DNA of 64,000 nt from Candidatus Iainarchaeum sp. (lineage in GTDB: Archaea > Iainarchaeota > Iainarchaeia > Iainarchaeales > 0-14-0-20-34-12). Where the stretch lies: NCBI GenBank assembly GCA_030649345.1, contig JAUSKK010000016.1, forward strand, positions 4,541 through 68,540, written 5' to 3'. Made by a program: the position numbers and the translations under genes. Below, in pieces: positions 1,511-46,503 of the stretch (positions within the stretch are counted from its first letter, which is position 1; each line of letters starts with the position of its first letter). The notes under the pieces were generated by a model that did no database searches, was not told the origin of the DNA, and saw only the letters and a program-made list of their open reading frames with translations.

Positions 1511-4500
1511 GTGTTTTGGTTGCGTTTATTTTTTCTAGTTTGTCTTTTTCAGTTTTTTCTTTCCCCGGTCTTAGCGCAGACAGATTCGTTTTCTCAAACT
1601 GTTCCTTTAACTCAATACTTTGTTTTAGATTCAAATCAATCTATGCTGGCAATGCTTCCTGCAGTCAGCCAAGTAAGTCCATTGAATTCTGTTCAAGCAA
1701 TTCAATTTCAAGTTCCTATTTTTGTTGATTCCAATACTCAATTTTCGAAAGCAGTATTTTCTTTTTCTGAACTGCCGTTAAATCAAAAAACACCCACTGC
1801 ATTAATTTCTTTACTGCCGGAACAGCGTTCCAGTTTGTTTTTTTTAATTTTAGTGCTGGGATTAATTATTATTGTACTTTTCATTAAACCAGGTTCCAAG
1901 AAAAAAAATTTGTTTGCGTTTTTTCTGATTTTTTGTTTTTTGTTTTCATTGAATCTTACAGCTCAAGAATCTGTTTCTGAATTAACTCTTCCATTGCTTA
2001 AAACAGACCCTGAACTTGCATCTGTTTCCAATTCAGATTGGAGTATTCTTTTGTCCAATACTCAAACAACTAATTTTTCTTTTTCTTTTTCAAATACCAT
2101 TCCATCGAATTCAGTTATTGAAAATTTAAATTTGCATTTTTCTGCTCGTGCAGAAATTCAATCAGTCAATAATTCAGCTGAATCTGCTTCAAGTGAAATA
2201 GTTAATGCAGGTGAAAATTCAAATGAAATTGAAGATTTAACTGAAACCATTGTTGAAACTCCAAGTGATTCTTTAACATCCAGTGAAGAAATTGTGCCCA
2301 GCGAAGAAACCTTAGTTCCTGTTTCGGATTCAGTTAATGAACCTGCACTTCCTGCAGTTGAATCTGTAGATCCTGTTAGTGAACCTGTAGATTCTTCGAA
2401 TGAACCATTAACTTCTTCCGATGCAAATTCTCCTGAAACTATTTTAACCTCTTCTTCTGTTTCTGAACTTCAATCCAATTCGAATTCCGTAATTTTTTTT
2501 GCAGATGTTGATTCAGAATTTATTTCCGAAAATTTATCTGCAGAAAATGTTCCTTTAGCTTTTTTATCCATTGATTTTTGGAATGGCTCTGCATGGGTTC
2601 CTGTTTTAGATTGCCAAGATTTGAATATTTTTTCAACCATCCAAGATACTGTATGCGATCTTTCTTCTGTTATTCCAGTTCTTTCTTCCGAGCCCATTGT
2701 CTTAGGTTTTCGGGTAACTCCTTTACAGGAAAATGTTACTCTTTTTTTAACCAACACTGCTTTAAAATCTCTAATTTCTTCTTCAAATTCAGGAACAGCT
2801 CAAATTACGGTATATTATAAAACAACCGAAGGACTTCAGTCTTTGCCGGATTGTGTAAATCTTGATTTTTCTTTTAAAACTTTTTCTTGTGACTTTTCTT
2901 CTTTTTTTAAAAATTCTTCCGGCATTCAAAATTTAATTTTTGAAATCCATACTCAGCAAACTTCTGGTTCAGTTCAAGCTGGTTTAAATTCAGCCCAGCT
3001 TGATTTTTCGTATTCTTCTTTAAACCCGAATGCAGTTCATCTTGCAACTTTACTTTCAGACCGACAACCAGTGCTTGACTTTGATTCTGTTCTTATAACT
3101 GGTTCTGAGTTTACTTTGGATCAGAATGTTTTCAGTGTTTTTTCTATTGTAAATCCTGTTCTAAATTCTTTGCAAATCAAAAAATCTTCTTTGACTGCCG
3201 AACCTACTCAAATGTCCATTCAGTCTTTGCCTGTATCCATTCCTGCTCCAGAAGGCATAAAATGGCAGAATGTTTTTGCTGTCAATTTTGGAGATTCTAA
3301 TTTTTCCGAAGCTGTTTTTCAAATTAAAGATTCAAATGCTTTAATTTATTTTTGTTCTGAATTTAATTTTGAAAAAAATATATGTGCTTTAGACTGGATC
3401 AAACTTAACACTGGCAAGTCTGTGTTCATTCCTTCTCCAGGTGTTTTAGGATTCGGAATTCAGGATATTTCTTTTATTCATGGTTTTGTTTGCTTGAATT
3501 GCGATTCCAAGAATTCTTCAGCTAAAGATATTCAAGTTAATGTTAAAGTATTCAATGCCGGCAGTCAAACAGATGTAAATTTAACCAGTTTTTTTCCAGT
3601 TGCTTTGGAAGTAATTGATTCCAATCAAGGTTTGGTTTTAGATCATAATAGTGAATTCCGAAAAATTGTTTGGCAGAATCTTTCATTTGAAAATTCATTT
3701 ACTCAAAGTTATGTTCTGCGTGTTTCACCTAAAAACTCAAAAAAAGCATTCTTTTTTTCCATGCTTTCCAATTTGTCTTCGGATTATGTGCAAATGAATT
3801 TTTCGCTTTCTAGAAAAGAAAAACTTGTGCAAAAATTTGAAAAAAAATCAATGCATGAAATCCGCAAAGATATCCAGAAAGAATTCAAAACCATTGTCAA
3901 AAAACATGCGTTTGAATCCGATGAAGCTGTATTGCTGCCGTTTAAAAAATCTGAATTAGACACTGTTTTAAGTGCTCAAGACTTTTCAGAATTTACCAAT
4001 TCGGAATCTACCCATTTTTCAGAAAAAAGAATTGGCTCCAAAATTGTCCGGGCCGGCTTTTTCGGAGACACTTTGCTTCAGCCGGAAATTGTGGTTTCAG
4101 ATTCTGATCCCAATGAATTTATGCTTTTAGCCAAGCCAGAAACCAATGAATTTATTCCCGGAGAATACAAAGTATGGATTGCGGTTGAAGAAAATAATTC
4201 TGTTTCGTATGAAGAATATTCTTTTTCTTGGGGTTTAATTACTGTAAATTCATTTAAGCCTTTATATCATCCCAATGAAAAAGTAGAATTGTATTCAGTT
4301 GTTTTGGATTCAGCTGGTTTTCCTAGATCGGGAGCTCAAATTAAATTTACAGTTCAAACTCCTTCTTTGGTGTTGAATTTTTCTACAGTCGATGGAACGA
4401 TTGTGGAAACTTCTGTGAAAGGAGTCTATAAAGCAGAATTTTTAGCAGCTGAAATTGGAAATTATTTGGTTCAAGCTGAAACCAATATTGAAGGATCTCC

Positions 4501-6352
4501 CATTGTTTCGGAAAACAATTTTGGTGTCAGAGAATTTTTTGAATTTGATATTGTCCGCGAAATGCCTTTTACGATTGATCCCAGAAACGGGCCGTTTCAT
4601 ACCAAAATTACAATTACTCCCTTTATTGATAATTCAATTTCTTATCAAGTCAAAGAAGTTTTCTCTAAATCAATAACTCCTTCCAATACTTCTGCCAGTA
4701 TTTCTTCTACAGATACTTTGCAGTATTTGGATTGGCCGAGTGTTTCTGGTCCGCAAACTTTTGAGTATGATTTTGATGCTCCTTTCTTTTGGCCGCGTTT
4801 GTTTGAATTTGGAAAAATTCAAATACAATATGATTCGAATAAAACTTTTACAGAAGAACGTGCTTTTGATTTAGCTATTGATCCTACTGTATCAACTACT
4901 TGGTATATTGTAGATACGACAGACACTCAACAAGGTGTAGACATTAATGAACCTAAACCTGACAGACATACTAATTTTGCAAGCAAAGGAACACCTGCTC
5001 CTTCTTTATTGGCTTTTGGTTTAGCTAAAGGAAATGCAGTAGCTTCTAATGGTGTAAGAAAAGTTACTGGAGCTACAGCGACTGGTGACTATAATGCTTT
5101 AGTGGTTACTTCTCCTCCTTTGCGTGGTCAATTTATTAGTGGAACTTGGACTATGGATATCTGGGGGTTACAAAATAATGCTAGTGCTGATTTAACTCCG
5201 AATGCATATCTTCGGGTTTGGACAGCTGCCACGGATAGTGCAGGTGATGAAATTTGTGCCAAAACAGCTGATGGCGCTGAATGGGGTAATGCTTCATCTA
5301 ATCGTACTTTAATGACTTGGACTTGTTCTGGCAATCCAGTAACCTTTGCGAATAAAGATAAACTTGTATTGGAAATTGTCAGTGCTGGTTTAAGCCCTGG
5401 TTCGTCTAGCTCGTATGCAGACATTAATTACGGTAATACTTCCAGTGATTCAAGGATAACCAGTCCAGATACTTTACGTTTATATGCTGAATTAAAACAA
5501 CCTGTTATTTCGATTCCTTCGGCTGACAACAATTCTGGAACTGTTACAGGCGTGAATATGCGTGTGCAGGCAACTGTTGGTTGTACCAGTGTTTATTATG
5601 GTGATTGTGGTGATGTCAATGCCAGAATTCAGTTTTGTCAAACTGAAGGTTGTACTAATTTTGCGGACATGAATTTTACAGACGGTGGTTTACGTATTGT
5701 GGCAGGAGATCAAATTGTATATGAGCAAGATTTGGTTTCGGGTGAAACTTCTTCTGCATTTGCTTGGGAAATTCAAGGCTTTACTGCAGCAACCTATGAA
5801 TTGCGTTTGCGTACAGACGCTAATTTTACAGACACCAATACTTCTTCTGGAACAGATCGTACAATTACAATTAGTGCTCCGGGTGGAGCAGACTTAACTT
5901 TTGCTTTAGCGTATCCTGCTTCAGGCTGCACGAACGGAAAAGGTCGTACTTCTGCTGGAAATGGTGCTTGTGAAAAAGTTTATTTTGAAACCACTGATTT
6001 ATCTGGAAATGCGGATGAAAATCAAGTAATTCCAGAGGGCGGTAATCCATTTTTTGTATATGACAATCAAAGTACAAGCAGTTCAGATATTAATTTTACT
6101 TTAGACTTAAATGCTGCTTTGCCTTCCAGTTTATGGCTGAAAACTTCAACCATTTCTTCCGGTTATGCAGGTTCTTGCACCAGCAATCCAGACAACAATT
6201 GTGTTTCTATAACTACTGTGGCTCAAAATATTGGGAAAGCAATTTTTAGTACTGGTTCCCAAGATTTGAATGTATGGCTTTGGGCGGACTTTTTCCAGTC
6301 GAGTGTTCAAACCCAAGACCGAAATGCCACCAGTACTAGTGTGAGTTCGTAA
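1511..6352 (+). CDS. giant (1613 aa) secreted or surface protein, Ser/Phe/Asn-rich, with a higher-GC Gly/Thr/Asp-rich C-terminal domain
   Basis: Long uninterrupted ORF. N-terminal signal peptide (FLSPVLA|QT). A second signal-like or TM segment near residues 110-160. Composition shift after about nt 4900. Confidence 0.6.
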   Translation: MFWLRLFFLVCLFQFFLSPVLAQTDSFSQTVPLTQYFVLDSNQSMLAMLPAVSQVSPLNSVQAIQFQVPIFVDSNTQFSKAVFSFSELPLNQKTPTALISLLPEQRSSLFFLILVLGLIIIVLFIKPGSKKKNLFAFFLIFCFLFSLNLTAQESVSELTLPLLKTDPELASVSNSDWSILLSNTQTTNFSFSFSNTIPSNSVIENLNLHFSARAEIQSVNNSAESASSEIVNAGENSNEIEDLTETIVETPSDSLTSSEEIVPSEETLVPVSDSVNEPALPAVESVDPVSEPVDSSNEPLTSSDANSPETILTSSSVSELQSNSNSVIFFADVDSEFISENLSAENVPLAFLSIDFWNGSAWVPVLDCQDLNIFSTIQDTVCDLSSVIPVLSSEPIVLGFRVTPLQENVTLFLTNTALKSLISSSNSGTAQITVYYKTTEGLQSLPDCVNLDFSFKTFSCDFSSFFKNSSGIQNLIFEIHTQQTSGSVQAGLNSAQLDFSYSSLNPNAVHLATLLSDRQPVLDFDSVLITGSEFTLDQNVFSVFSIVNPVLNSLQIKKSSLTAEPTQMSIQSLPVSIPAPEGIKWQNVFAVNFGDSNFSEAVFQIKDSNALIYFCSEFNFEKNICALDWIKLNTGKSVFIPSPGVLGFGIQDISFIHGFVCLNCDSKNSSAKDIQVNVKVFNAGSQTDVNLTSFFPVALEVIDSNQGLVLDHNSEFRKIVWQNLSFENSFTQSYVLRVSPKNSKKAFFFSMLSNLSSDYVQMNFSLSRKEKLVQKFEKKSMHEIRKDIQKEFKTIVKKHAFESDEAVLLPFKKSELDTVLSAQDFSEFTNSESTHFSEKRIGSKIVRAGFFGDTLLQPEIVVSDSDPNEFMLLAKPETNEFIPGEYKVWIAVEENNSVSYEEYSFSWGLITVNSFKPLYHPNEKVELYSVVLDSAGFPRSGAQIKFTVQTPSLVLNFSTVDGTIVETSVKGVYKAEFLAAEIGNYLVQAETNIEGSPIVSENNFGVREFFEFDIVREMPFTIDPRNGPFHTKITITPFIDNSISYQVKEVFSKSITPSNTSASISSTDTLQYLDWPSVSGPQTFEYDFDAPFFWPRLFEFGKIQIQYDSNKTFTEERAFDLAIDPTVSTTWYIVDTTDTQQGVDINEPKPDRHTNFASKGTPAPSLLAFGLAKGNAVASNGVRKVTGATATGDYNALVVTSPPLRGQFISGTWTMDIWGLQNNASADLTPNAYLRVWTAATDSAGDEICAKTADGAEWGNASSNRTLMTWTCSGNPVTFANKDKLVLEIVSAGLSPGSSSSYADINYGNTSSDSRITSPDTLRLYAELKQPVISIPSADNNSGTVTGVNMRVQATVGCTSVYYGDCGDVNARIQFCQTEGCTNFADMNFTDGGLRIVAGDQIVYEQDLVSGETSSAFAWEIQGFTAATYELRLRTDANFTDTNTSSGTDRTITISAPGGADLTFALAYPASGCTNGKGRTSAGNGACEKVYFETTDLSGNADENQVIPEGGNPFFVYDNQSTSSSDINFTLDLNAALPSSLWLKTSTISSGYAGSCTSNPDNNCVSITTVAQNIGKAIFSTGSQDLNVWLWADFFQSSVQTQDRNATSTSVSS

Positions 6353-7748: not shown

Positions 7749-9392
7749 ATGCCAGCTACATTTGAATCTTTTACAGAACAAGAAAAACAAGTCTTGAAAC
7801 CATACTTTACTAATTTAGATCAATCTATTTTTGTTTTGCAAAATTTGCCGGAAGTCGTCAAAGGAGCTTTATTTTCCAGATATTCTAGGTCTTCTAAATT
7901 ATTGCGCAGACTGTTACTCGAAGAATTTTTGAATGTAAAAGAACTCGGCTTAACCGAACTGTTAAATCATCAAGCCAATACACAAGATCCTTTGGTGGCT
8001 GCCAAAAAAGCCGAAGAATTTTACGACCGAGTCTTGGTTGGCTTTGGAGATGACTCAGTTGCAGAATTGGCTGGCTGTCATATTGCCTGTGAACAAGTTT
8101 CCATGATTGCCACCAAAGCCTTAGAAGATTCACGGATTGGCTTGTGTCCTTTAGAGAAAAGTACACGGTATGTTTATTTTGATCAAAAAATAAATGGCCA
8201 CTATCAGTATTTGTTAGAAAAAGATTTAATGAATTCAGAATTTGCAGACTTATACACTGAAACTTGTGATTCTTTGTTTGATGTGTATGCCAAAATTTTA
8301 GAACCTATGAAAAAATATTTTACAGACTTATATCCTAAAGATGCTGAAACTTCTGATCGTGCTTACACTTCTGCTGTGAAAGCCAAAACCTGTGATACTA
8401 TTCGTGGTTTATTGCCAGCCAGTACTTTAACCAATTTAGGCTTGTATGGAAATGGCCGAGCGTTTGAATATTTATTGCAAAAAATGTATGCCAATCCTTT
8501 AAGTGAAATGCAGTCTTTGGCTTCAGAAATGCATTCCGAATTACGAAAGTATATTCCTTCGTTTGTCAAACGTGCCAATGATTCTTTAGGCCAAACCACC
8601 ATTGATTTCTGGCAGCAATCTTGGGCTGTTCAAAAAAAATATGCCGAAAAACAATTCAATCAAGTTCCTATGGAGTCAGTTCCTCAAGTTGAATTAATTG
8701 ACTTTGATTCCAAAGCGGAAGAAAAAGTGTTGACTGCTTTATTGTATTCCAAAACTGGTTTGTCCTTAAAACAAATTCGAAAACATATTCAAAAACTTTC
8801 AGTTTCTGAAAAACAGCAAATTTTTCAAGAATATTTAAATCATCGAAAAAACCGCAGACACAAGCCCGGAAGAGGATTTGAAACTGCGCAATATACTTTT
8901 GATATTCACGCCAACTTTAATGCTTTCCGTGACCTTCAAAGGCATAGAATGTTAACTCAAGAACGACAACTTCTTTCATGCAATTTAGGGCATATTACTC
9001 CCAAAGAATTATTCGATGCAGGCTTTGCTGAAGAGTATCAAAGTGTAATGAGTCAAGCCAAGGAATCGTTTGATGTTATTGCAAAAAAAATGCCAGCTCA
9101 AGCTCAATATATTGTTCCTATGGGGTATCATGTTCGCTGGTATATTTCTTTGAATGCCAGAGAAATGTATCATTTATGTGAACTGCGTTCAGTCCAGCAA
9201 GGTCATCCAGATTATCGCTATGTTGCGCAGCAAATGTTTTTGGAAGCTCAAAAAGTGCATCCTTTGTTAATGAATGCCATGAAATTTGTAGACATGAAAC
9301 AATATTCCTTTGAACGAATTGAAGCCGAAAAATATACCGATAAACGAATGGATGAAATTAAACAAAAGCATGGAATTGAATGGAAAGAATAG
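7749..9392 (+). CDS. thyX: FAD-dependent thymidylate synthase ThyX-like, apparent tandem-duplicated ThyX fold (547 aa)
   Basis: ThyX signature RHR-x(7-9)-S (QRHRMLTQERQLLS). Two ThyX-like LP-x-S/T...N-x-R blocks (IRGLLPASTLTNLGLYGNGRAFEYLLQKM and AQYIVPMGYHVRWYISLNAREMYHLCELR). Confidence 0.55.
   Translation: MPATFESFTEQEKQVLKPYFTNLDQSIFVLQNLPEVVKGALFSRYSRSSKLLRRLLLEEFLNVKELGLTELLNHQANTQDPLVAAKKAEEFYDRVLVGFGDDSVAELAGCHIACEQVSMIATKALEDSRIGLCPLEKSTRYVYFDQKINGHYQYLLEKDLMNSEFADLYTETCDSLFDVYAKILEPMKKYFTDLYPKDAETSDRAYTSAVKAKTCDTIRGLLPASTLTNLGLYGNGRAFEYLLQKMYANPLSEMQSLASEMHSELRKYIPSFVKRANDSLGQTTIDFWQQSWAVQKKYAEKQFNQVPMESVPQVELIDFDSKAEEKVLTALLYSKTGLSLKQIRKHIQKLSVSEKQQIFQEYLNHRKNRRHKPGRGFETAQYTFDIHANFNAFRDLQRHRMLTQERQLLSCNLGHITPKELFDAGFAEEYQSVMSQAKESFDVIAKKMPAQAQYIVPMGYHVRWYISLNAREMYHLCELRSVQQGHPDYRYVAQQMFLEAQKVHPLLMNAMKFVDMKQYSFERIEAEKYTDKRMDEIKQKHGIEWKE
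9355..9388. repeat. 34-bp direct repeat, copy 1 (3' end of thyX)
   Basis: aaattaaacaaaagcatggaattgaatggaaaga is identical to 9937..9970. Confidence 0.85.
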
Positions 9393-14188: not shown

Positions 14189-14293
14189 ATGAAAAAAATT
14201 CCCAAAAAATGCCCACAGTGCAATTCCTCGCGCATTATCAGTGCACTAAATCGTTTTAAGTGCTTGAAATGCAATTTTATTCACAGTGTTTAA
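14189..14293 (+). CDS. 34-aa zinc-ribbon mini-protein
   Basis: MKKIPKKCPQCNSSRIISALNRFKCLKCNFIHSV, with CPQC-x13-CLKC. Not in the ORF track because of its size. Confidence 0.3.
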   Translation: MKKIPKKCPQCNSSRIISALNRFKCLKCNFIHSV

Positions 14294-14706
14294 CCTAAAA
14301 ATTCTTTTAAAACTTTTAATCTTGCTTGTTTTTTGGAAATTTCGTTTCTGGTCTGCAAACTATCTCTTCCAGCTCCGTGTGAAAGCTCTAAAATATCTTG
14401 TTCCAGTTGCCCAATTTCTCCTCGGATTGTTTTTTTTACAATCGGAGTTATTTTTCGTGTTTGTTTGAACTTTCTCAAGGCTCTTAATTTTGCACTTTTT
14501 GTAACTCCCGTAATTCTTCCCACTCTAAATGGCCTAATTTTGCTTTTTCGGTTAGACCGCAGTCTTTCTTTTGGGCCCCAAGGCATGATTGTTAATCCGC
14601 GAACCACATATTGTTTGGTTCTCCGCAAAGTTTTCGTTCGATCTTGCAATGTATGTTTTACTGCTCTCGGAATTTTTCGTGCAATCATAGTATCATTCAA
14701 TAACAT
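14290..14706 (-). CDS. small highly basic protein (possible ribosomal or RNA-binding protein; family not assigned)
   Basis: Lys/Arg-rich throughout. A hydrophobic Cys/Phe-rich plus-strand ORF lies on the opposite strand (14333..14917). Confidence 0.35.
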   Translation of the reverse strand: MLLNDTMIARKIPRAVKHTLQDRTKTLRRTKQYVVRGLTIMPWGPKERLRSNRKSKIRPFRVGRITGVTKSAKLRALRKFKQTRKITPIVKKTIRGEIGQLEQDILELSHGAGRDSLQTRNEISKKQARLKVLKEFLG

Positions 14707-14717
14707 TTTCAGTATAT

Positions 14718-17690
14718 TTAATTCTTTTTCAATTGGTTTTCAATTTCTTGCTCTAATAATTTCAAAAATTTGTCTTGCTGGTCTATTGGAACCCTGCAGC
14801 CCGCTGCTGGACGATGTCCTCCACCTTCAGCTCCTTCAATTTGTGCACAGCAAGTCTTCAAAAGTGTTCCTAAATTTAATCCAGCCCGAACCAAATCATC
14901 ACTTGCGCGAGCACTAATCTTCAAATTCCCATCCGGATATTTAGAAATCGCAATAATGGGTTTATTATGTTCCAGTATTCCAGAGCCATACAGCATTCCT
15001 GCCACAATTCCAATAATGGAATCTTTAATTTTTCCTTTGGAATCAAAATAATAATAATTTTTTCTTTTCTCCACTCCTTGTTCTGTAACCAATCTAAGTC
15101 CTTCACTGAGTTCTCTTCGATGATTGGCAAGCAAACGCAAAGCTTCATCGTAAGCATTCGAACGATTTCCTAAACACACTTGCAAAGCAATATCTTCATT
15201 TTCATGGCGTGCACAATTATGAACTACTATTCCATTTGCAATATAGTTGTGTGTTTCATCTACTGTAAAATCATAAACTTCGCTTATTCCATTCACTTCT
15301 TTTATCTCTTCAATTTTTTCCCAAGTTAAATCTGATTCCAAATGTGAATAAATTATTTTTATAAGATTGGATGCATGACCTAATTTAGTTATCACGACTT
15401 TAATGCCATTACCCAGCTTTTTTTGGGCATTCGCTCCAGGCTTTTTTCCTTCAATAATCCGGTAAGTCCATTCTTCTGATAATTCACAATATTGACTAAA
15501 TTGCCTTGTGCTTATTTTGGCATTTTCTAAAAATTCAGGTAACTTTTTGTTTTGCAAAAATTTATCCACGGCAGCAATTTTTTTTTGTAGCTGTACTTCA
15601 AAATAGTCTATGAACTTAACTGCGTGCTGTCTTGTTGGATTAACTGCGCTTTTTTTATAATACGTAAAAATACTGCTGATTTCATTTGGTATTCCAAGCA
15701 AATCTTTCAATTCCAATAACTCATTTTTAATTTGTGGCATTATTTCATAATTCGAATTATCCAATTGTGTGTTTTTTATGAACTTTCTTATTTTTAATTG
15801 GTAATGGCTATTTTTCATTATAGGTTCTAATTTTTTAAAATTTTCAATTCCAGTTATAAACAACCTATATTTATTGCCTGTACAATCTTTGCATGGTTTG
15901 TTTGTGACTGTGCTGTTTATTGAAAATTTTAATAGGATATTTTGAAAATCGTTCATTATCTCTTTGCTGTGACTTGCGTAGGTTATGCTTCTGCCGGACA
16001 TTGAACCATCGCTTTCTAATAACCCGCGAATACACGCAGCAGCGTTCTTCTTGTTTAGAAACGGTATTATTTTTTTAAGAGTGATCTGTGTGTCTTTTTT
16101 CCCTTTAGGAACTCCTAACCTGTTGAAAACTTCAACCAGTGTTTTTCCATTTATGTAAGCACTAAAATAGGTCGGCCGGCGGTCATAGGATAATTTGCTT
16201 ATTCCAAACAAACTTTTTATTATGTGTTTATGTTTTTTGAATATTCGTCTGCCTTTCAGAGTATTGGGGTAAATTAATCCTATATTGTGTGTGTCTAAAT
16301 GTCCGTCTCCTAAAATAAACCCATACAACTCAAAGAAATTCGAATTTAGTTCAGTGTTTTTTATGTAATTTATGCATCGCTTAAATCTGAATCTATTTCC
16401 ATTCGAGCTCCATTGTATTTCATCTTGCTTAAAAAAATCTTTTGCATACGTTTTTTTAATTTCTATATCCGGAATGCTCCGCAGCGTGGCAACATAATCA
16501 CCAGTACGTAACTTTTCTAGTTCGTGCCAGCCAAATGTGTGATTGTAGGATAAAATTTCATGATTTTGTGTAGCAATAAGTGTTTTTTTTCTATTTGTTT
16601 TTAACTCCAGTAATTTAATTCCTGGCGGCACTGCAATTTTATGTCTTTTTTCAATCTGACTTTTGCTGTATTTCAAACTTTTTTGGTTAAGACTCAGCAG
16701 TTTCTCTTTGTCAAAATTTTGTATTGGGATGTTTGTCCCATTTGAATCCAAAATGAGTGTATCTGCTGTCACACAGGCATTTAGAATGGTTCCATATTCT
16801 TTAGCATCCTTTAATGGACTACCCCAACTTTCTTTTGTTAAAGTATACACTTCTCCAATTAAGGATTGAATTTTCCATTCCGGAACATTGACTTGATGCA
16901 AATACAAAATCAAAGCAGTCGTAAATTTTTGTTTATCGTCCAAACTTAATTCTTCATAACTTGGCCAACGATTATCTTGTTTTATTTTAATTCCATTTTC
17001 ATGCAAAAAAGAAACGCAAGCTCCTTCATTTCCAGTTAAACCTGGCAACATCGGAGAACTGGCAAACATTAAAAATTGAACCAAAGGCCGTGAAATTCTT
17101 CCATACAAACGTAAATCAATTTTTTTTTCTAACACACCTGCGCTAATTCCATCTTCTAAAATTTCCCGATTCAAACCAATCACTTTTCCAGAGCTATCCT
17201 GCACATCTCCACAAGCTCCCACAATTCCTAAATCGGCTAAATCTTTATTTTTTTCATTTAACATTCTGGCAAAAAAATAAGCTGAACCACTAGCACTCAA
17301 TTCATAACTTCCACTAAATCCAAATGTGTTTGCATTGAAGTGATTTTCATGATCACTTGTAACCTGATGATGATCTAAAACAAAGAAATTTTTTCCAAAT
17401 TCTTTTTCTAAAGGAATTAAATAACTAGAGCCTAAATCCACAAAAATAATGTTTTCAAAACCCAATTCTGCTTGTTTTGCTTTCAGTTCTAAAACAATTT
17501 CTGCATACAATTGCTTCAAAATTCTAGTGCCTAAAACTTTTTTGTTTTCCCGTTGCAAAGCTTTAATCACAATTGCAGTTGACGTACATCCGTCAGCGTC
17601 ATGATTTCCAACAATAAAAAAATTATCCAAATTCCTTATTTTTCCAACAATTTGTGTCAATCGTTCTTCGAATGCTTTTTGGTCTCCCAT
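14718..17690 (-). CDS. archaeal RecJ/Cdc45-like DHH-family nuclease (GAN-like), interrupted by an in-frame intein
   Basis: DHH motifs (IVGNHDADGC and FVLDHHQV). DHHA1 GGGH motif (GAEGGGHRPAAG). Extein is about 470 aa after removal of the 520-aa intein. Confidence 0.7.
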   Translation of the reverse strand: MGDQKAFEERLTQIVGKIRNLDNFFIVGNHDADGCTSTAIVIKALQRENKKVLGTRILKQLYAEIVLELKAKQAELGFENIIFVDLGSSYLIPLEKEFGKNFFVLDHHQVTSDHENHFNANTFGFSGSYELSASGSAYFFARMLNEKNKDLADLGIVGACGDVQDSSGKVIGLNREILEDGISAGVLEKKIDLRLYGRISRPLVQFLMFASSPMLPGLTGNEGACVSFLHENGIKIKQDNRWPSYEELSLDDKQKFTTALILYLHQVNVPEWKIQSLIGEVYTLTKESWGSPLKDAKEYGTILNACVTADTLILDSNGTNIPIQNFDKEKLLSLNQKSLKYSKSQIEKRHKIAVPPGIKLLELKTNRKKTLIATQNHEILSYNHTFGWHELEKLRTGDYVATLRSIPDIEIKKTYAKDFFKQDEIQWSSNGNRFRFKRCINYIKNTELNSNFFELYGFILGDGHLDTHNIGLIYPNTLKGRRIFKKHKHIIKSLFGISKLSYDRRPTYFSAYINGKTLVEVFNRLGVPKGKKDTQITLKKIIPFLNKKNAAACIRGLLESDGSMSGRSITYASHSKEIMNDFQNILLKFSINSTVTNKPCKDCTGNKYRLFITGIENFKKLEPIMKNSHYQLKIRKFIKNTQLDNSNYEIMPQIKNELLELKDLLGIPNEISSIFTYYKKSAVNPTRQHAVKFIDYFEVQLQKKIAAVDKFLQNKKLPEFLENAKISTRQFSQYCELSEEWTYRIIEGKKPGANAQKKLGNGIKVVITKLGHASNLIKIIYSHLESDLTWEKIEEIKEVNGISEVYDFTVDETHNYIANGIVVHNCARHENEDIALQVCLGNRSNAYDEALRLLANHRRELSEGLRLVTEQGVEKRKNYYYFDSKGKIKDSIIGIVAGMLYGSGILEHNKPIIAISKYPDGNLKISARASDDLVRAGLNLGTLLKTCCAQIEGAEGGGHRPAAGCRVPIDQQDKFLKLLEQEIENQLKKN
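15216..16775 (-). mobile_element. intein with LAGLIDADG homing-endonuclease domain, residues 306-825 of the DHH nuclease
   Basis: N-splice Cys (NA|CVTADTLILD). Two LAGLIDADG-like blocks (LYGFILGDGHL and LLESDGSMS). C-splice VVHN|C. Confidence 0.7.
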
Positions 17691-17750
17691 ATTAAGTTTG
17701 AGTTTGAATGGTTTAAAAAGAAAACGAAGGTAGACTTCCCGTTAAATCAG

Positions 17751-17984
17751 TTAATTGGAGCTTTTTTGAACCGGTATTTTGGAAACACTAACTTCAGCTA
17801 AAGATTTTGCAGGAATTCTCTCTTTAATGGCCAGTAATTCTATTCCTAAAATATTGCCATCTTTGTCAAAATCTGCAATAGTTTTGTTATCGATTTTTTT
17901 GTTTTTATAAAATGTGCCTTTTCGAAACGAAATATACATTGCATTTGCGTCTAAGTCAATTTTGATCTTCATAACTATACCCAA
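17751..17984 (-). CDS. DUF2283-like small protein (putative antitoxin partner)
   Basis: 77 aa. 10-nt overlap with the upstream DUF4258-like gene. Confidence 0.4.
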   Translation of the reverse strand: MGIVMKIKIDLDANAMYISFRKGTFYKNKKIDNKTIADFDKDGNILGIELLAIKERIPAKSLAEVSVSKIPVQKSSN

Positions 17985-18202
17985 TATGTGGTTATAATCT
18001 TAATAATTGTATCCGTTTTTTGGAAAACAACTTCTAACCTTCCTTTGAACGTATTTTTAGTAGCTATCCAGGTATCTTTTTGTTTTTCAATTCTTTCTGC
18101 CTGTTCAATGACCTCTATTACTAAATCCAACGATACTCCTCGTTGGTGCATTCTTTCCTGTGCATGACCTGTAAGTAGGTATTTCATTTTCTCCAAATAC
18201 AA
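17975..18202 (-). CDS. DUF4258-like small protein (putative toxin)
   Basis: LTGHAQERMHQRGVS resembles the H-A-x-x-R-M-x-x-R-G-I/V-S block of DUF4258. Confidence 0.45.
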   Translation of the reverse strand: MYLEKMKYLLTGHAQERMHQRGVSLDLVIEVIEQAERIEKQKDTWIATKNTFKGRLEVVFQKTDTIIKIITTYWV

Positions 18203-18262: not shown

Positions 18263-18880
18263 TTAGATTTCAATAATCTTATCGCAGAATTCTGAAATGT
18301 ATTCCGCCAAGCTTTTTTTGTGTTCTTTAGCCAGCAACACTATTGAATTGGCTTCATGAATTCTGGATTTGGAAATCAGACTGTGCACAAATTTTTCGAC
18401 AGTATCGTGCTGGTTGTATACCAATAAAGTACTGGCTGAATCCAATAACACAAACTTTTTGCCTTTTAATTCTTTTAAAATATTTTCTGTTAAAACACTA
18501 ATTTCTGTCAATTCTTTTGGAGAGTCCACAAAATAAAAATTTTCTTTGCTGGATTTTTGTCCGCCGCTTTGCATGGTAATTCCATCCAAGAAAACAAGCT
18601 GGTTGGTGTCAATTCCTTGTGCTTTAATTTTTTCTTCCAATATTTGGGCTGGCATGTTAACTGTAATATAAACACCCCAATATTTTTTTTGAATTAAATA
18701 TTTGATAATTCCTGCAATCACTTGATTGTGGCTGGATAAGTTTTCAATAACCAAAACTTGAAAATCTGGATCCAATCCTTCCAGTTCGCGCTGAAAGATC
18801 AACGAAATTTTACGGCTTTCCAACAATAATTCTTCCAGTTCATTTTGAGGTAAAGTAGTTTCAGACATATGAGTGTTCAA
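18263..18880 (-). CDS. KaiC/RecA-superfamily-like protein lacking a Walker A motif (degenerate paralog)
   Basis: No GxxxxGK[ST]. Fold-level resemblance to the adjacent KaiC-like protein (VLLDSAS and VLLAKEH blocks). Confidence 0.3.
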   Translation of the reverse strand: MNTHMSETTLPQNELEELLLESRKISLIFQRELEGLDPDFQVLVIENLSSHNQVIAGIIKYLIQKKYWGVYITVNMPAQILEEKIKAQGIDTNQLVFLDGITMQSGGQKSSKENFYFVDSPKELTEISVLTENILKELKGKKFVLLDSASTLLVYNQHDTVEKFVHSLISKSRIHEANSIVLLAKEHKKSLAEYISEFCDKIIEI

Positions 18881-18973
18881 AATATACTGTAAGTATAATG
18901 CAGTCTGGCTTTATTTTATTTTGGTTTATTTGCTTGTTTTGCAAGCTGTTTCAGCGTTGTTTCCATGTCTGTA

Positions 18974-19708
18974 TCATTTCACGTCTTCAAATAATTGCTG
19001 CCCTGCTAAAATATGAACTCCTTCTCGGTCAATGCGTACTGGATGCAAATTTTCGCTGATTTTGGTGTTTCTCATTTTAAGAATTCCTGTGCCGCGAATG
19101 AATTTTTCCTGGAGTTTAGTGTGGTACATTAAAATGACTCCATCCGCTACATATTCTTCCAATCCAAACAAAGAACTGGAATTATCTAAAGAAATTTCAT
19201 TCGTAATAATACTGGTAACATTCAATCGTTTCAGCATTCTTCCCAAACTCAAAATTCGCTTTCTGGCATCCAGTTCTTTTTCAAAATACAATCGAAAAAT
19301 TACGCCTGGATCAATAATGACTCGTTTGGCTCCTAATTTTTCAGTTAAAGTTTCAATCGTATTCCTGAGTTTGTCAAAATCGTACAATTCAATGTTTTCA
19401 ATTTCTAACATTCCCTTGTCCATTTGTTCTCTTAAATTCCATCCAAAATAGGAAGCCATATTCACAAGTTCATCTACTTCTTCTTCTAAAGAAATATACA
19501 CTCCTGGCTCATTATGGTATTTGGCTCCATAATACAAGTATTGCATGCATAGCACTGTTTTGCCTGAACCCGGATCTCCAGAGACAACTACTAAAGAACC
19601 TTTTGGAATTCCACCGTCCAATAATTCATCCAATCCAGGCACTCCGGATTTCACTCTTTCTGGAGTAGTTAAAACATTTTCCGTACTTGCGATTTTTTTT
19701 GCCGCCAT
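18974..19708 (-). CDS. KaiC-like RecA-superfamily ATPase (FlaH/RadB-like, single domain)
   Basis: GVPGLDELLDGGIPKGSLVVVSGDPGSGKT (Walker A). KaiC-type N-terminal G-x-P-G-x-D motif. Confidence 0.6.
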   Translation of the reverse strand: MAAKKIASTENVLTTPERVKSGVPGLDELLDGGIPKGSLVVVSGDPGSGKTVLCMQYLYYGAKYHNEPGVYISLEEEVDELVNMASYFGWNLREQMDKGMLEIENIELYDFDKLRNTIETLTEKLGAKRVIIDPGVIFRLYFEKELDARKRILSLGRMLKRLNVTSIITNEISLDNSSSLFGLEEYVADGVILMYHTKLQEKFIRGTGILKMRNTKISENLHPVRIDREGVHILAGQQLFEDVK

Positions 19709-42693: not shown

Positions 42694-45600
42694 ATGGCTA
42701 AGAGAGTTGCGTTGCGCACAGTTCTATGCATAGCATTATTTTTCTTTAGCTTAGGCTGTTTGGACCAAAAAAATTTTGCAAAAAACCAACAGCTCTGTTA
42801 CCAAGTGTCTGTTCTATCTTCACCCAATATTCCTTCATGCACTTCCCAATCTGCTTGTTTTGAAAAAGTTAATTCTTCTATTTTAAACTTTGATTACTCT
42901 GCATTTGATTTACAAATTACTCAAAAATTTTTTGAATACAAAAACCAGCTGGCTTTATCTTGGCATTATTTTAATCAATCCAAAAACGAATTTGAAAAAC
43001 TTCAAACCCTGTGCCAATCTGCAGACTTTCAATCTCTGCCAGAACAATTAACTCAAATTAGTTTTTACTTAAATCAAGCATTTGAATCTGCCTTGAAAAC
43101 CAATCGCATTTCTTTTGAAATCATTGCCTTGGAAGCATTCCTTTTAGAACAACAACACATTGACTTAATTCCAGAAAGCAACCTGCACATACACTACACT
43201 ATTTTATTGGATAATTTAAATCAAGCTCATTCTCAAATAATTATTCCCAATTCCTATTACCAAAATTATTCGCAAGCCCTTCAAGAGTTTGAAAATTTTG
43301 CACAACTCCAAGGCTTCCAATCTTTTATTGCAGAACCTGTTACTTTTTTAGATTTATTCCATATTTCGAGTCAGCGTTTTCCCAGTAAACTAAATTCTGA
43401 AGAACCTTTCTTTTTTCCAACTCTTAAAACATATGTTCCAAAAGTGTTCAATTTTGCCTATCAATCCCAGCGCATTCAGGATTCAACTACTTTCCTTCAG
43501 CAGCTTCAATCCTTTGATTTAATTCAAAAATATTCACAAATCGCAGCAGTCCAAAATTCTGTGCCCTCCCAGTTTTCAATTCTTTTTTCCACTCTGGCGT
43601 ATGAAAAATCTTTTACAATTTCGCAAAATCAAACTCAGTTTAAAATTCTCCAAACTAAATTAAACGGTCTTGAACTGCGCTGGCAGTCGTTTCAAGAACT
43701 AGACTTTAATCGAACATTTCCTGTTCTGTTTTCCTCCATAAATTCAAAATTGATTCAGCTCCAAGACAAAATTATGCGAAAACGAATTACTTTCGGTGAA
43801 GCTTCCAAAATTATTTCCAATTTATCCAGTAATCTTTCCGGAATAGATCAAAAACTTTCTTTTTGGTCTTCCGCGATCCAACAAGAACTTTCCAATTGTT
43901 CGGAGATTCCCAAAAATGTTTCGCTTAAAGAAAAACTTTGGATTTGCAGAAATCCACCCAAACCTTTGCTGGAAGTGTCTAAACAATCTATGCATTGCTT
44001 AAACGATTGGAATTTACTGCAAAACATTGACTGGATTCAACGCAAACTTGATTTAGATTTCAAAACAATTTCCTATTCTGGCTGTCCGCAAACACTTTTT
44101 TTGCGTTTAACTCAAATTCATTCTTGGCCGGAAATTCAAAATCTACTTTTAATTCGAACAGAATTTTTAACCTTATTAGAACAAACGCAACCACTCCGGC
44201 CTTTTCTTTCGGAAACACTGCGTATGCGATTTCAAGCACTTGAAAAAAAAACTTCAGAATTTGAAGTTAATTTTTTTGAAAATAAAATTTCCATTCAAGG
44301 TCTTCAAATTTTTTCAACACTTCCTTCTCTTCTGTTGAAACTCCACCAAGAACTTTTAGATTTGTCTGCAGAAAGTTTAGCATACTATTTTTCTCAAAAT
44401 CCAATCTTGGAATTTTCTCCAACATACACTCAAGGTAAACTTAAATTTGAAAACTCTTTTTTTGATTTAAATTATCCAGTTCAATTTTCCATTCCTTGGC
44501 CTTTGTCCATTTTAGATTTAGATTTAAATTCTATGAATTCCAGTAAAATTCAAATCAGCAAAGATCATTCTAAAATTACGTTTATTTTTCCCCAAATTTC
44601 CATGGGAACGTTATCCATTCCTTTTTTTGGAAATACGTCAGCATTTTTTTCCGAAAATGTGTCTTTTTTGAAAATAACTTCAGAAGAACTCTTGATGAAA
44701 AATCAATTAAAAATCCATCAAACCATTCAGCCAGCTAATTTTTTGGTTGCACTTTCCAATTTTGATTTATCCATAAATCAAGTATTTGTTTTCTTTAATC
44801 AATCCAGTATTCCAGCTTACGCTGAAAATAATTCTTTAAAATTTTCACTTCCAGTGGTTTCTGCTCAAGATACTTTAGAAATCTTATATTCTTTAAATCA
44901 GCCAATACTCGTAACTATTCAATCGCAACAAAACATTCCGGAAAATACCCCAAAGTTTACTCAAATTTTGACTTTTTCTGTTCAAAACAAAAGTTCTACT
45001 GAATTTTCGAATATTCAAATTACTCTGCCATTTTCTTCCAATCCGTTCATTGAATCCATTTCTGCTTTTTCTGAAAACGAAAAAATTCCAGTGCAAATGC
45101 ATTCAGATAGTCTTTCCATTATTTTTCCAAAACTTTATCCTAAAGCGCAAGCTGTTTTTTCTGTAAATTTGGACATCGAAAACCGTTCTCAATTTTTTCA
45201 AGCACGCATAACTGAACTCGAAGAAAAATCACTCCAGCTTCAAAATCCAGAAATGTATTCTATGCAAATACTGGCATTTAAACAAAAACAAGGATTGTCT
45301 GAAGATTTTGACCAATTATTGGCATTGGAAAAACAAATTCAAATTTCTCTGGAAACCGAAATTAAAAATCAAGAATTTTTAGATCAATTTCGTTTTAAAG
45401 AAAATTTGTTTTTAATCCAGCAAAAAAATTTGACTCATGACTTTAATTTACTGAACCAGTCTTTACCGATTGAGTTTCAGCAAGCTCAGCAATTCTATCA
45501 AGACGCACGCTCCAGTTTAAATTCTGATCCAGTTCAATCTATGCGCTGGCTAACCCAAGCTCAAATAACTTTAAATAAAATAAATTTTGAAACCTACTTT

Positions 45601-46503
45601 AAGTCAACTCAGCAGGTATTGGAAGAAAAATTTCTGGAATTAAAACAAGTCCACGAATTTCTTGCAAGTCTGAATATTTTAGATTCCAGTGAAACAACAT
45701 TGTTTTTTTCTCTTCAAGACAAAATCCAATTCATTTCTTCTGTTCAAATCATTCAATCTTCTTTTTACGATGTATTTAAAGAATTTTTTTCCAACTCTCA
45801 AGACTTGAATTTAACCCAAATACGTTTGCTGAAAACAGCTCAAGCTCATGCTGGGACTGAAATTAAAAAATTTCGTACTCTGCTGGAGTTTCCAGAATTA
45901 CCTAAACTTAAAGCAGAACTGGAAGCTGTTCAGTCTCATTCTTGGTTGTCGGATTATTATTTTCCTTTGTTAACTCTTAAAGATTTAGATTTAATGCAAA
46001 CCACTATAGACAAAATTATTCAAAGTTCTTTGTTTTCCAAATTGGAATCTTTTGAAAATGATCTTGAAACCAATATGCTGCAAGCCTTGAAAGCTTTTCA
46101 TAAAATTGAACCAGAATTAATTCAAAAAATTCAATTAATGGAGTCATTTCAATTTTCGCTGCGTTCTTTTTCTGCAGAATTGCAAAAAGACGCTATGCTT
46201 TTTTATGAAAAAGCTCAAGCAACAGGATTAGATACTGCTGAATTCAAAACTGCTTTAGATAAAGCCAAACGCTTAATTGAAAATAAAAATTACTTGAAAT
46301 CTATTTCCATTACAGGTTTACTAACTACAGTTCCATCTTCTTCTGTTTTTCCCATTCATTGGGTTTTATTATTTTGCGTTTTATTGATTACCTCATTTTT
46401 AGGATATAAAAAAATAACGCAACCCAAACTTAAAAAAAGAAAACGCAAATTGCGTTCTTTACTTTCGAGTCCAAAGAACAATCAAGATAGCCAAAGCCAC
46501 TAA
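42694..46503 (+). CDS. large (1269 aa) surface protein with N-terminal signal peptide and C-terminal TM anchor plus basic tail
   Basis: Signal peptide (LCIALFFFSLGC). C-terminus is VLLFCVLLITSFLGYKKITQPKLKKRKRK. Confidence 0.55.
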   Translation: MAKRVALRTVLCIALFFFSLGCLDQKNFAKNQQLCYQVSVLSSPNIPSCTSQSACFEKVNSSILNFDYSAFDLQITQKFFEYKNQLALSWHYFNQSKNEFEKLQTLCQSADFQSLPEQLTQISFYLNQAFESALKTNRISFEIIALEAFLLEQQHIDLIPESNLHIHYTILLDNLNQAHSQIIIPNSYYQNYSQALQEFENFAQLQGFQSFIAEPVTFLDLFHISSQRFPSKLNSEEPFFFPTLKTYVPKVFNFAYQSQRIQDSTTFLQQLQSFDLIQKYSQIAAVQNSVPSQFSILFSTLAYEKSFTISQNQTQFKILQTKLNGLELRWQSFQELDFNRTFPVLFSSINSKLIQLQDKIMRKRITFGEASKIISNLSSNLSGIDQKLSFWSSAIQQELSNCSEIPKNVSLKEKLWICRNPPKPLLEVSKQSMHCLNDWNLLQNIDWIQRKLDLDFKTISYSGCPQTLFLRLTQIHSWPEIQNLLLIRTEFLTLLEQTQPLRPFLSETLRMRFQALEKKTSEFEVNFFENKISIQGLQIFSTLPSLLLKLHQELLDLSAESLAYYFSQNPILEFSPTYTQGKLKFENSFFDLNYPVQFSIPWPLSILDLDLNSMNSSKIQISKDHSKITFIFPQISMGTLSIPFFGNTSAFFSENVSFLKITSEELLMKNQLKIHQTIQPANFLVALSNFDLSINQVFVFFNQSSIPAYAENNSLKFSLPVVSAQDTLEILYSLNQPILVTIQSQQNIPENTPKFTQILTFSVQNKSSTEFSNIQITLPFSSNPFIESISAFSENEKIPVQMHSDSLSIIFPKLYPKAQAVFSVNLDIENRSQFFQARITELEEKSLQLQNPEMYSMQILAFKQKQGLSEDFDQLLALEKQIQISLETEIKNQEFLDQFRFKENLFLIQQKNLTHDFNLLNQSLPIEFQQAQQFYQDARSSLNSDPVQSMRWLTQAQITLNKINFETYFKSTQQVLEEKFLELKQVHEFLASLNILDSSETTLFFSLQDKIQFISSVQIIQSSFYDVFKEFFSNSQDLNLTQIRLLKTAQAHAGTEIKKFRTLLEFPELPKLKAELEAVQSHSWLSDYYFPLLTLKDLDLMQTTIDKIIQSSLFSKLESFENDLETNMLQALKAFHKIEPELIQKIQLMESFQFSLRSFSAELQKDAMLFYEKAQATGLDTAEFKTALDKAKRLIENKNYLKSISITGLLTTVPSSSVFPIHWVLLFCVLLITSFLGYKKITQPKLKKRKRKLRSLLSSPKNNQDSQSH

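Follow-up and report, generated by a model that had tools for sequence, protein, structure and literature searches.

The recJ gene of an archaeon of the DPANN lineage Diapherotrites/Iainarchaeota is very probably interrupted by a canonical class-1 intein with three modules, i.e., a HINT splicing domain, a homing endonuclease of the monomeric double-LAGLIDADG type and an accessory domain that is helical and probably of the helix-turn-helix (HTH) type. The gene lies in a stretch of 64,000 nucleotides from Candidatus Iainarchaeum sp. (contig JAUSKK010000016.1, positions 4,541 to 68,540), which is referred to below as the window and whose own numbering is used throughout. The recJ precursor gene, consisting of an N-extein, the intein and a C-extein, is found on the minus strand at 14718–17690, where the list of open reading frames (ORFs) and the domain matches define a protein of 990 amino acids (aa) plus stop with an ATG start. 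All parts of the precursor described below are on the same minus strand.

Intein Boundaries and Splicing Domain

The intein comprises aa 306–825 of the precursor (520 aa; 15216–16775), as delimited by its matches to Intein_splicing, TIGR01445 and TIGR01443, a clean alignment gap, an AlphaFold model and Foldseek matches of that model. It starts with CVTADTLIL (Cys306), ends with GIVVH824-N825 and is followed by Cys826. The Pfam model Intein_splicing (PF14890) matched aa 313–825 over positions 2–155 of 155 (E = 3.4e-24; 85.8 bits vs. a cutoff of 35.8), the NCBIfam model intein_Nterm (TIGR01445) matched aa 306–380 above its curated cutoff, and intein_Cterm (TIGR01443) matched aa 804–826 with 41.5 bits vs. 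a cutoff of 15.6. These intein-domain matches are far beyond chance. A previous sequence-only reading of this DNA had proposed an intein with LAGLIDADG motifs in a RecJ-type DHH nuclease; the ORF, the motifs, the 520-aa insertion, its initial Cys, its terminal His-Asn and the +1 Cys were all found where that reading had placed them, and the Pfam, NCBIfam and fold matches agree with its proposal.

The insertion site is exact. Alignment of the precursor with 16 intein-less orthologs opened a single clean gap of exactly 520 residues, in frame, between ...T-I-L-N-A and C-A-R-H..., and the flanks were aligned without any loss, which is the precise insertion that the sequence-only reading had anticipated. 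A search with the spliced sequence identified 374 homologs at E ≤ 1e-10. The best 120 of these 374, which were inspected, are 454–588 aa in length and 46–54% identical to the spliced sequence, and the labelled organisms among them are mostly 'Candidatus Diapherotrites'/Iainarchaeum, together with one Micrarchaeota and several unclassified archaeon metagenome-assembled genomes (MAGs). The intein segment and its domains were absent from all of these best 120, which excludes that the segment is a conserved native domain of the nuclease. The 16 aligned orthologs show no variation at N304 and R828 and almost none at C826. The near invariance of this Cys in intein-less RecJ argues that the +1 Cys is a native host residue, which the intein would exploit as a nucleophile.

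The two lobes of the splicing domain enclose the other modules. The N-terminal HINT lobe (intein residues 1–100; 16476–16775), recognized by motif invariance and modelled beta strands, contains Cys1 (block A) and the block B sequence T69-Q-N-H72 (16560–16571). The C-terminal HINT lobe with blocks F and G (intein residues 482–520, ...VYDFTVDETHNYIANGIVVHN; 15216–15332) is matched by TIGR01443 (E = 1e-10) and, in a phmmer search, matched the DnaB mini-intein 1MI8 (E = 1e-9). C1, T69, N71 and H72 are invariant in alignments of five and of nine inteins from the RecJ-site family described below. In the AlphaFold model of the intein, which was built on five family members and has a mean predicted local distance difference test (pLDDT) score of 83.4, the beta-rich splicing lobes are formed by intein residues 7–98 and 483–519. 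The best Foldseek matches of this model were the endonuclease-bearing inteins TliVMA (7QSS; E = 8e-22), PI-PfuI (1DQ3; E = 9e-16) and PI-TkoII (2CW7; E = 3e-14); further matches included PhoVMA (7QST) and PI-SceI, and free-standing LAGLIDADG enzymes, such as I-DmoI, ranked below. The insertion therefore possesses the features by which class-1 inteins are recognized, i.e., Cys1, the T-x-x-H of block B, a terminal His-Asn, Cys at +1, the HINT fold and a host protein that is colinear with its orthologs after excision. Hidden Markov model (HMM) searches, which the earlier reading had suggested for the intein blocks, and fold searches both identified the splicing domain and the endonuclease. No second intein was found in the 64-kb window when all six-frame ORFs were searched by phmmer or with an HMM of the nine inteins.

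Homing Endonuclease and Accessory Domains

A LAGLIDADG homing endonuclease occupies intein residues ~141–320 (15816–16355), as indicated by the Pfam match to LAGLIDADG_3 (E = 6.7e-14; 52.3 bits vs. a cutoff of 22.5), the modelled fold and invariant motifs. The first LAGLIDADG motif, LYGFILGDGHL (aa 455–465; 16296–16328), includes Asp157 in intein numbering, and the second (IRGLLESDGS), of which LLESDGSMS covers aa 557–565 (15996–16022), includes Asp256. Neither the five-intein alignment nor the full set of nine family members shows any change in G156-D157-G158-H159, S255-D256-G257, G225 or K227. In the model, the endonuclease displays a double alpha-beta-beta-alpha-beta-beta-alpha pattern, and its Foldseek match to I-DmoI has a TM-score of 0.75 (normalised to the target), with a range of 0.67–0.77 for I-DmoI and I-Tsp061I. 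Two helices that each end in Asp within a pseudo-dimeric fold are thus present, as is found in double-motif LAGLIDADG enzymes. We also noticed a C-x-D-C motif (C-K-D-C-T-G-N; intein residues 295–301; 15873–15893) in a beta hairpin of the second endonuclease half, whose C295, D297 and C298 are invariant in the nine RecJ inteins. Given that it contains only two Cys, this motif is not a complete zinc-binding site.

Between the endonuclease and the C-terminal lobe, the model and the family conservation delimit an all-helical accessory domain of ~160 aa (intein residues 322–481; 15333–15812). Its modelled helices span residues 324–336, 347–360, 382–409, 412–418, 423–430, 434–441 and 448–479 (pLDDT 80–94), and a separate model of the accessory domain alone, made from an alignment of five rows, has a pLDDT of 83.8. 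The domain is kept in all nine family members, with the conserved sequences PxxWSxHFTYYKxGK ... ISxxWLxxIxxGKxPGxNAxxK. Sub-threshold matches point to a probable XRE/Cro-type HTH core at intein residues ~410–441 (15453–15548): the weak Pfam matches were to HTH_3 in five of the nine members (best E = 2.3e-4) and to HTH_26 in three (best E = 7e-5), and the window's own copy matched HTH_60 only, also weakly (E = 0.025). Most structures matched by the accessory domain in Foldseek are XRE-family regulators (HigA, SinR, ClgR, C.Esp1396I, HipB and CapH), none at a significant level (E ≥ 0.12). In related MCM inteins, the same position, behind the LAGLIDADG domain, is occupied by a Pfam-significant HTH_3 domain (E = 1e-13 and 2e-10). 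With moderate confidence, we regard the accessory domain as an HTH of the XRE type with long helices on either side. The accessory domains of TliVMA and PI-TkoII are HTH-like and modulate DNA recognition (PMC8966425).

The RecJ Host Protein

The N-extein (aa 1–305; 16776–17690), identified by the Pfam domains DHH and DHH_CID, consists of a DHH catalytic domain (Pfam DHH at aa 24–157 of the precursor; E = 5.7e-9) with an inserted CMG-interaction domain (CID), and ends with ...TILNA. The CID (aa 195–278; 16857–17108) is matched by DHH_CID (PF21763; E = 4.4e-22) over positions 1–84 of 84, and is a mark of archaeal RecJ, GAN and Cdc45, archaeal RecJ/GAN being the counterpart of Cdc45. The C-extein (aa 826–990 plus stop; 14718–15215) begins with Cys826 (C-A-R-H) and continues with a linker helix and the DHHA1 domain (Pfam DHHA1 at aa 887–984; E = 8e-13). 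The host motifs are NHDADG (aa 29–34; 17589–17606) and LDHH (aa 105–108; 17367–17378) in the N-extein and GGGH (aa 956–959; 14814–14825) in DHHA1. The precursor is deposited at NCBI as MDO8427981.1, 'DHHA1 domain-containing protein [Candidatus Diapherotrites archaeon]', on a contig of 68.8 kb, and a Logan contig from run SRR13727527, which is an independent assembly, encodes the identical 990-aa protein.

The spliced sequence of 470 aa matched the NCBIfam model RecJ_archaeal (NF053576) in one stretch over positions 5–452 of 452 with 472.2 bits (cutoff, 360), compared to 454.2 bits for the unspliced precursor, and it aligned over its full length with PfuRecJ (5X4H; E = 1.3e-74) and TkoGAN (5GHR; E = 3.5e-72). 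The sequence-only reading had termed the nuclease GAN-type. The architecture of DHH, CID and DHHA1 and the match to TkoGAN bear this out, but the protein missed the cutoff of the NCBIfam model GAN_nuclease (NF053575; 285.3 vs. 850 bits). The correct family label for the host is RecJ_archaeal; it is a GAN homolog outside the narrow GAN_nuclease model, and any binding of GINS by it is putative. The biochemical traits of GAN are that it associates physically with GINS51 and that its 5'-3' exonuclease is stimulated (PMC5716160).

D31, D33, D85, D106-H107-H108, D162 and G956-G-G-H959 are invariant among the precursor and the 16 intein-less orthologs. Except for the GGGH residues, these are the counterparts of residues that in PfuRecJ lie in the metal sites or close to them, of which D34, D36, H106 and D165 are ligands and D83 is a possible ligand (PMC5716160). 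Because the equivalents of the PfuRecJ metal-site residues are all invariant, we judge that the host is a catalytically competent RecJ and not a degenerate Cdc45-like protein.

The Insertion Site

In the alignment with 5X4H, corrected for the tag of 23 residues that the crystallised chain carries, N304-A305|C826-A827-R828 of the window protein correspond to N302-A303-T304-G305-R306 of PfuRecJ. N302, T304 and R306 of PfuRecJ were assigned to the binding of single-stranded DNA (ssDNA) by comparison with a complex of DrRecJ and ssDNA; mutating these residues lowers or abolishes activity, and the activity on ssDNA is lost in the double mutants N302A+T304A and N302A+R306A (PMC5716160). TkoGAN is inactivated by R307A, and bacterial RecJ likewise conserves the corresponding Arg (PMC5716160). 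By this comparison, the intein divides an N-A-(T/C)-G-R substrate-binding motif between the Ala and the Thr/Cys. Substrate-binding motifs are typical intein sites. As the intein lies inside a motif implicated in ssDNA binding, the unspliced precursor is expected to be inactive.

The reconstructed empty recJ site reads GCTAAAGAATATGGAACCATTCTAAATGCC|TGTGCACGCCATGAAAATGAAGATATTGCT, and the orthologs show a CGR variant of it. The C-extein of the window begins with C-A-R-H (15207–15215 for aa 826–828), compared to C/T-G-R in the 16 aligned orthologs and in all eight other intein-bearing RecJ. The Gly at +2, which is at least 90% conserved, is Ala827 in the window. This residue is within the presumed endonuclease target as well as the ssDNA-binding motif, and its change from Gly to Ala could be a co-adaptation or a self-immunity of the homing site.

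The RecJ-Site Intein Family

An exhaustive HMMER search over 1.84 billion representative proteins, for which the window intein was the query, revealed a family of inteins in RecJ. The window protein and four other RecJ proteins (P0122–P0125) were found with 183–298 bits, while other inteins scored at most 108 bits. A scan of the GTDB species representatives identified six loci, i.e., P0123, P0124 and four new ones (L002, L003, L004 and L007), whose hosts are labelled Iainarchaeum, 'Nanoarchaeota' or unclassified archaeon MAGs and in which the intein position is identical, LN(A/S)|C...VHN|CGR. Three strong matches were obtained in a JGI metagenome scan: L027, from a marine metagenome, resembles P0125 in being truncated, and the other two have identity and coverage figures equal to those of L002 and L004, a correspondence that concerns these figures only. 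The JGI scan contained neither a closer relative nor an empty-site allele of the window gene.

In the searched collections, nine distinct RecJ inteins were thus found, including that of the window, all at one site and with pairwise identities of 29–61%; the sequence-only reading, which had described an intein in RecJ as less common, had understated its rarity. The labelled hosts of the other eight are Iainarchaeum/Diapherotrites, 'Nanoarchaeota' and unclassified archaeon MAGs. The nine inteins are fully colinear, including the accessory domain, and there are no mini-intein derivatives among them. C1, T-x-N-H, GDGH, SDG and the Gly and Lys of G-x-K are unchanged in all nine, and the eight complete sequences also all retain VYD, VHN and the +1 Cys.

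The nearest inteins outside RecJ (P0126–P0131) are found in MCM, a Hel308-type helicase and Topo VI-B (E = 4e-26 to 3e-22; 24–33% identity). By sequence, these belong to the same intein lineage, and the MCM members have HTH_3 at the equivalent place; they differ from the RecJ-site inteins in host genes and target sites and are separated from them by the clear score gap given above. We also noticed that the window itself encodes a Hel308-type archaeal helicase without an intein (58479–60587, plus strand; DEAD, Helicase_C and Helicase_dom4_arc), and that the closest non-RecJ relative (P0126) is hosted by a helicase of the same Pfam architecture (DEAD and Helicase_dom4_arc). A word-indexed protein search with the single window intein gave no match at E ≤ 1e-5, and the inteins matched with the five-intein profile, which sit in DnaB, a pelota-like protein and dyskerin, were all unrelated. 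The word index is dominated by other inteins, and it was the exhaustive HMMER search that brought out the RecJ-site family.

Distribution and History

The distribution of the RecJ intein is patchy. When the exteins of seven intein-bearing RecJ were compared with the 120 intein-less orthologs, six of the seven were closer to intein-less orthologs than to each other, with identities of 76% between L007 and P0072, 65% between P0123 and P0019, and 54% between the window protein and P0001/P0002. The exception was P0124, whose best match is the intein-bearing P0122. Such patchiness is what one would expect from gains and losses of a mobile element. Within the RecJ-intein family, extein and intein identities also point, in part, to descent along lineages. 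The closest pairs are P0124/L003, with 77% extein and 61% intein identity, and P0123/L007, with 56 and 58%, respectively. Across the family, extein and intein identities are related with a Pearson r of 0.63; the evidence for lineage descent is partial because, despite this value, the Spearman rho of 0.22 is not significant.

The intein of the window is an outlier of the family, with 29–35% identity to every other member. Its extein is 47–50% identical to those of L007, P0123 and L002, and the inteins of Iainarchaeum-type hosts are 50–58% identical among themselves. Either the window intein has evolved faster, or it represents a separate sub-lineage that was acquired independently.

Proposed Mechanism and Alternative Explanations

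In the interpretation that we favor, recJ would be translated into the 990-aa precursor, in which the splicing domain would catalyze an N-S acyl shift at Cys306, followed by trans-thioesterification onto Cys826. In the remaining two steps of this standard reaction, Asn825 would cyclise with the help of His824 and an S-N shift would take place, which would join Ala305 to Cys826 and yield the active RecJ nuclease of 470 aa and a free intein of 520 aa. The free intein would act as a site-specific endonuclease that cuts intein-less recJ at the DNA for ...TxLNA|CGRH..., with the HTH accessory domain probably contributing DNA contacts, and recombinational repair would copy the intein into the cut allele (homing). 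Imprecise deletion of the intein would be selected against, so that the site would stay conserved.

No observation contradicts the assignment of the insertion to the inteins, but several points limit other parts of this interpretation. The activity of the window endonuclease is not guaranteed because intact motifs occur in many inactive inteins, of which PhoVMA is an example (PMC8966425). The assignment of the accessory domain to the HTH type is based on matches below threshold. In composition the intein is nearly host-like, with GC contents of 0.320 in the intein and 0.350 in the exteins and values at third codon positions (GC3) of 0.292 and 0.232, respectively, and it is not a recent arrival by this measure, because its composition is so close to that of the host. 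Moreover, no close relative with an empty site was present in the databases searched, and recent homing cannot be demonstrated because the nearest ortholog is only 54% identical.

These points bear on the main alternative, which we regard as possible but rather doubtful, namely that the intein splices while its endonuclease is dead or decaying, so that it would be a resident element at a late stage of homing, vertically inherited and no longer mobile. The almost fully host-adapted composition would fit such an element, as would the fact that the window intein is the most divergent member (29–35% identity) despite an extein that is 47–50% identical to those of L007, P0123 and L002. The closest extein pairs share the closest inteins (Pearson r = 0.63), which suggests mainly vertical descent, and among solved endonucleases some that look intact can be inactive (PMC8966425). 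However, both catalytic Asp, GDGH, SDG and the Gly and Lys of G-x-K are invariant in nine sequences that are otherwise ~30–35% identical, and that nine copies which have diverged so far still agree in these residues speaks for ongoing selection on the endonuclease. Every member also retains the full endonuclease of 180 residues and the accessory domain of 160 residues, with no mini-inteins, and the intein is patchily distributed among close intein-less relatives, as a mobile element would be.

We consider it improbable that the intein was recruited as a switch at the post-translational level, in which splicing would be conditional on redox state (through a Cys1–Cys+1 disulfide), temperature or ssDNA and would set the time at which active RecJ/CMG nuclease is produced. 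Cys residues are present at both splice junctions, the intein is within a motif implicated in substrate binding, and there are precedents for substrate- or stress-controlled splicing of inteins in replication and repair proteins (PMC5238726; PMC11409957). Nearly all orthologs, however, manage without the intein, and selfish mobility explains the retained endonuclease more simply. If splicing did depend on redox or ssDNA, it would gate the production of active RecJ in small-genome DPANN archaea, a role to which we give little credence. That the 520-aa segment is instead a native lineage-specific domain, or an artefact of assembly or frameshift, has almost no probability left. The NCBI label of the protein indeed mentions no intein, but the segment has significant HMM and fold matches to inteins, its exact excision restores the full-length RecJ match, the identical protein occurs in the independent Logan assembly (SRR13727527), and the same architecture is found at the same codon in eight other genomes or metagenomes. 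Both the native-domain and the artefact explanations are refuted by these findings.

Comparison with Known Systems

TliVMA (7QSS), PI-PfuI (1DQ3) and PI-TkoII (2CW7), the best structural matches to the window intein (E = 8e-22 to 3e-14), share with it the combination of a HINT domain, a double-LAGLIDADG endonuclease and an accessory domain before the C-terminal splicing lobe. They are, however, only 10–17% identical to it in sequence, and their hosts are V-ATPase A, ribonucleotide reductase and DNA polymerase B, with other insertion sites. In comparison to theirs, the accessory domain of the window intein is larger at ~160 aa, includes two long helices at its flanks and is without a significant whole-domain structural match. 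PI-SceI of yeast VMA1, the archetype of homing inteins (Foldseek E ~1e-7 to 1e-8), is similar to the window intein in its class-1 chemistry (Cys1, His-Asn and Cys+1), its nested endonuclease of the LAGLIDADG type and an additional region for DNA recognition. In PI-SceI, which is eukaryotic and has another host protein, this region is inserted within HINT and is not a linker between the endonuclease and HINT (PMC8966425).

The host protein is like PfuRecJ (5X4H) and TkoGAN (5GHR) in having DHH, CID and DHHA1, all metal-binding residues and GGGH, and in its full-length alignment. In contrast to the window protein, the characterised RecJ/GAN proteins of Thermococcales are without an intein and have Thr in place of the +1 Cys. 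The window RecJ further differs from PfuRecJ and TkoGAN in failing the GAN_nuclease cutoff and in the +2 Ala that replaces a near-invariant Gly.

No description of an intein in RecJ, GAN or Cdc45 was found in the searched literature, the coverage of which was incomplete and did not include InBase. RecJ is not mentioned in the main text of a survey of intein clustering (PMC4760082), and a comparative paper on RecJ and CMG describes no intein in RecJ, GAN or Cdc45 (PMC3307487). Inteins cluster strongly in replisome proteins (PMC4760082). As far as the searched literature extends, what is new is the intein host, RecJ, and the insertion site; the type of element itself is known and ordinary, and the current understanding of intein function is unchanged by it. 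The recurrent RecJ site adds a replisome-linked protein to the intein hosts and again follows the rule that inteins occupy substrate-binding motifs, and RecJ/Cdc45, a component of the archaeal CMG helicase, joins MCM, an intein host already known. Both the window protein and P0123, which is deposited as a 'hypothetical protein', merit annotation as intein-containing RecJ. The nine-member family also provides natural endonuclease variants for one conserved target region of 20–30 bp, which are possible tools. A further possible tool is the accessory domain of the family, probably of the HTH type, because such domains have been engineered to alter the specificity of intein endonucleases (PMC8966425).

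Neighboring Genes and Other ORFs of the Window

Immediately upstream (5') of recJ, an overlapping gene pair encodes DUF2283 and DUF4258 proteins by Pfam (17751–18202, minus strand) and resembles a small toxin-antitoxin-like module. Farther 5' are two adjacent genes for KaiC/RadA-like ATPases (AAA_25/ATPase and DUF7090 in Pfam; 18263–19708, minus strand), and the independent Logan contig L001 carries both of these genes as well. Within 17691–17750 (minus strand), a TTTTTAAA element lies ~22–30 nt upstream of the recJ ATG and is compatible with a putative archaeal TATA box followed by a short or absent leader.

On the 3' side, a very basic ORF of 138 aa (14290–14706, minus strand; 37 Lys+Arg vs. 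10 Asp+Glu) starts 11 nt past the recJ stop. It had no Pfam match and no counterpart in any of the related loci fetched, and it is also called as a gene on Logan contig L001. It is followed by a polyprenyl synthetase gene, identified by Pfam. The plus-strand ORFs of the list that overlap recJ (14333–14917, 14770–15051, 14967–15173 and 16663–16869) seem to be antisense by-products of this long gene on the minus strand.

Elsewhere in the window, two giant plus-strand ORFs (1511–6352, 1613 aa; 42694–46503, 1269 aa) had no Pfam match at E ≤ 0.001. The usual length of ThyX is ~220–250 aa. An ORF of 547 aa (7749–9392, plus strand), in which no intein signal was found, has its best ThyX (Thy1) match at aa 316–505 only, together with a second Thy1 stretch of unspecified position, and could encode a duplicated or fused ThyX with an N-terminal region of ~300 aa.

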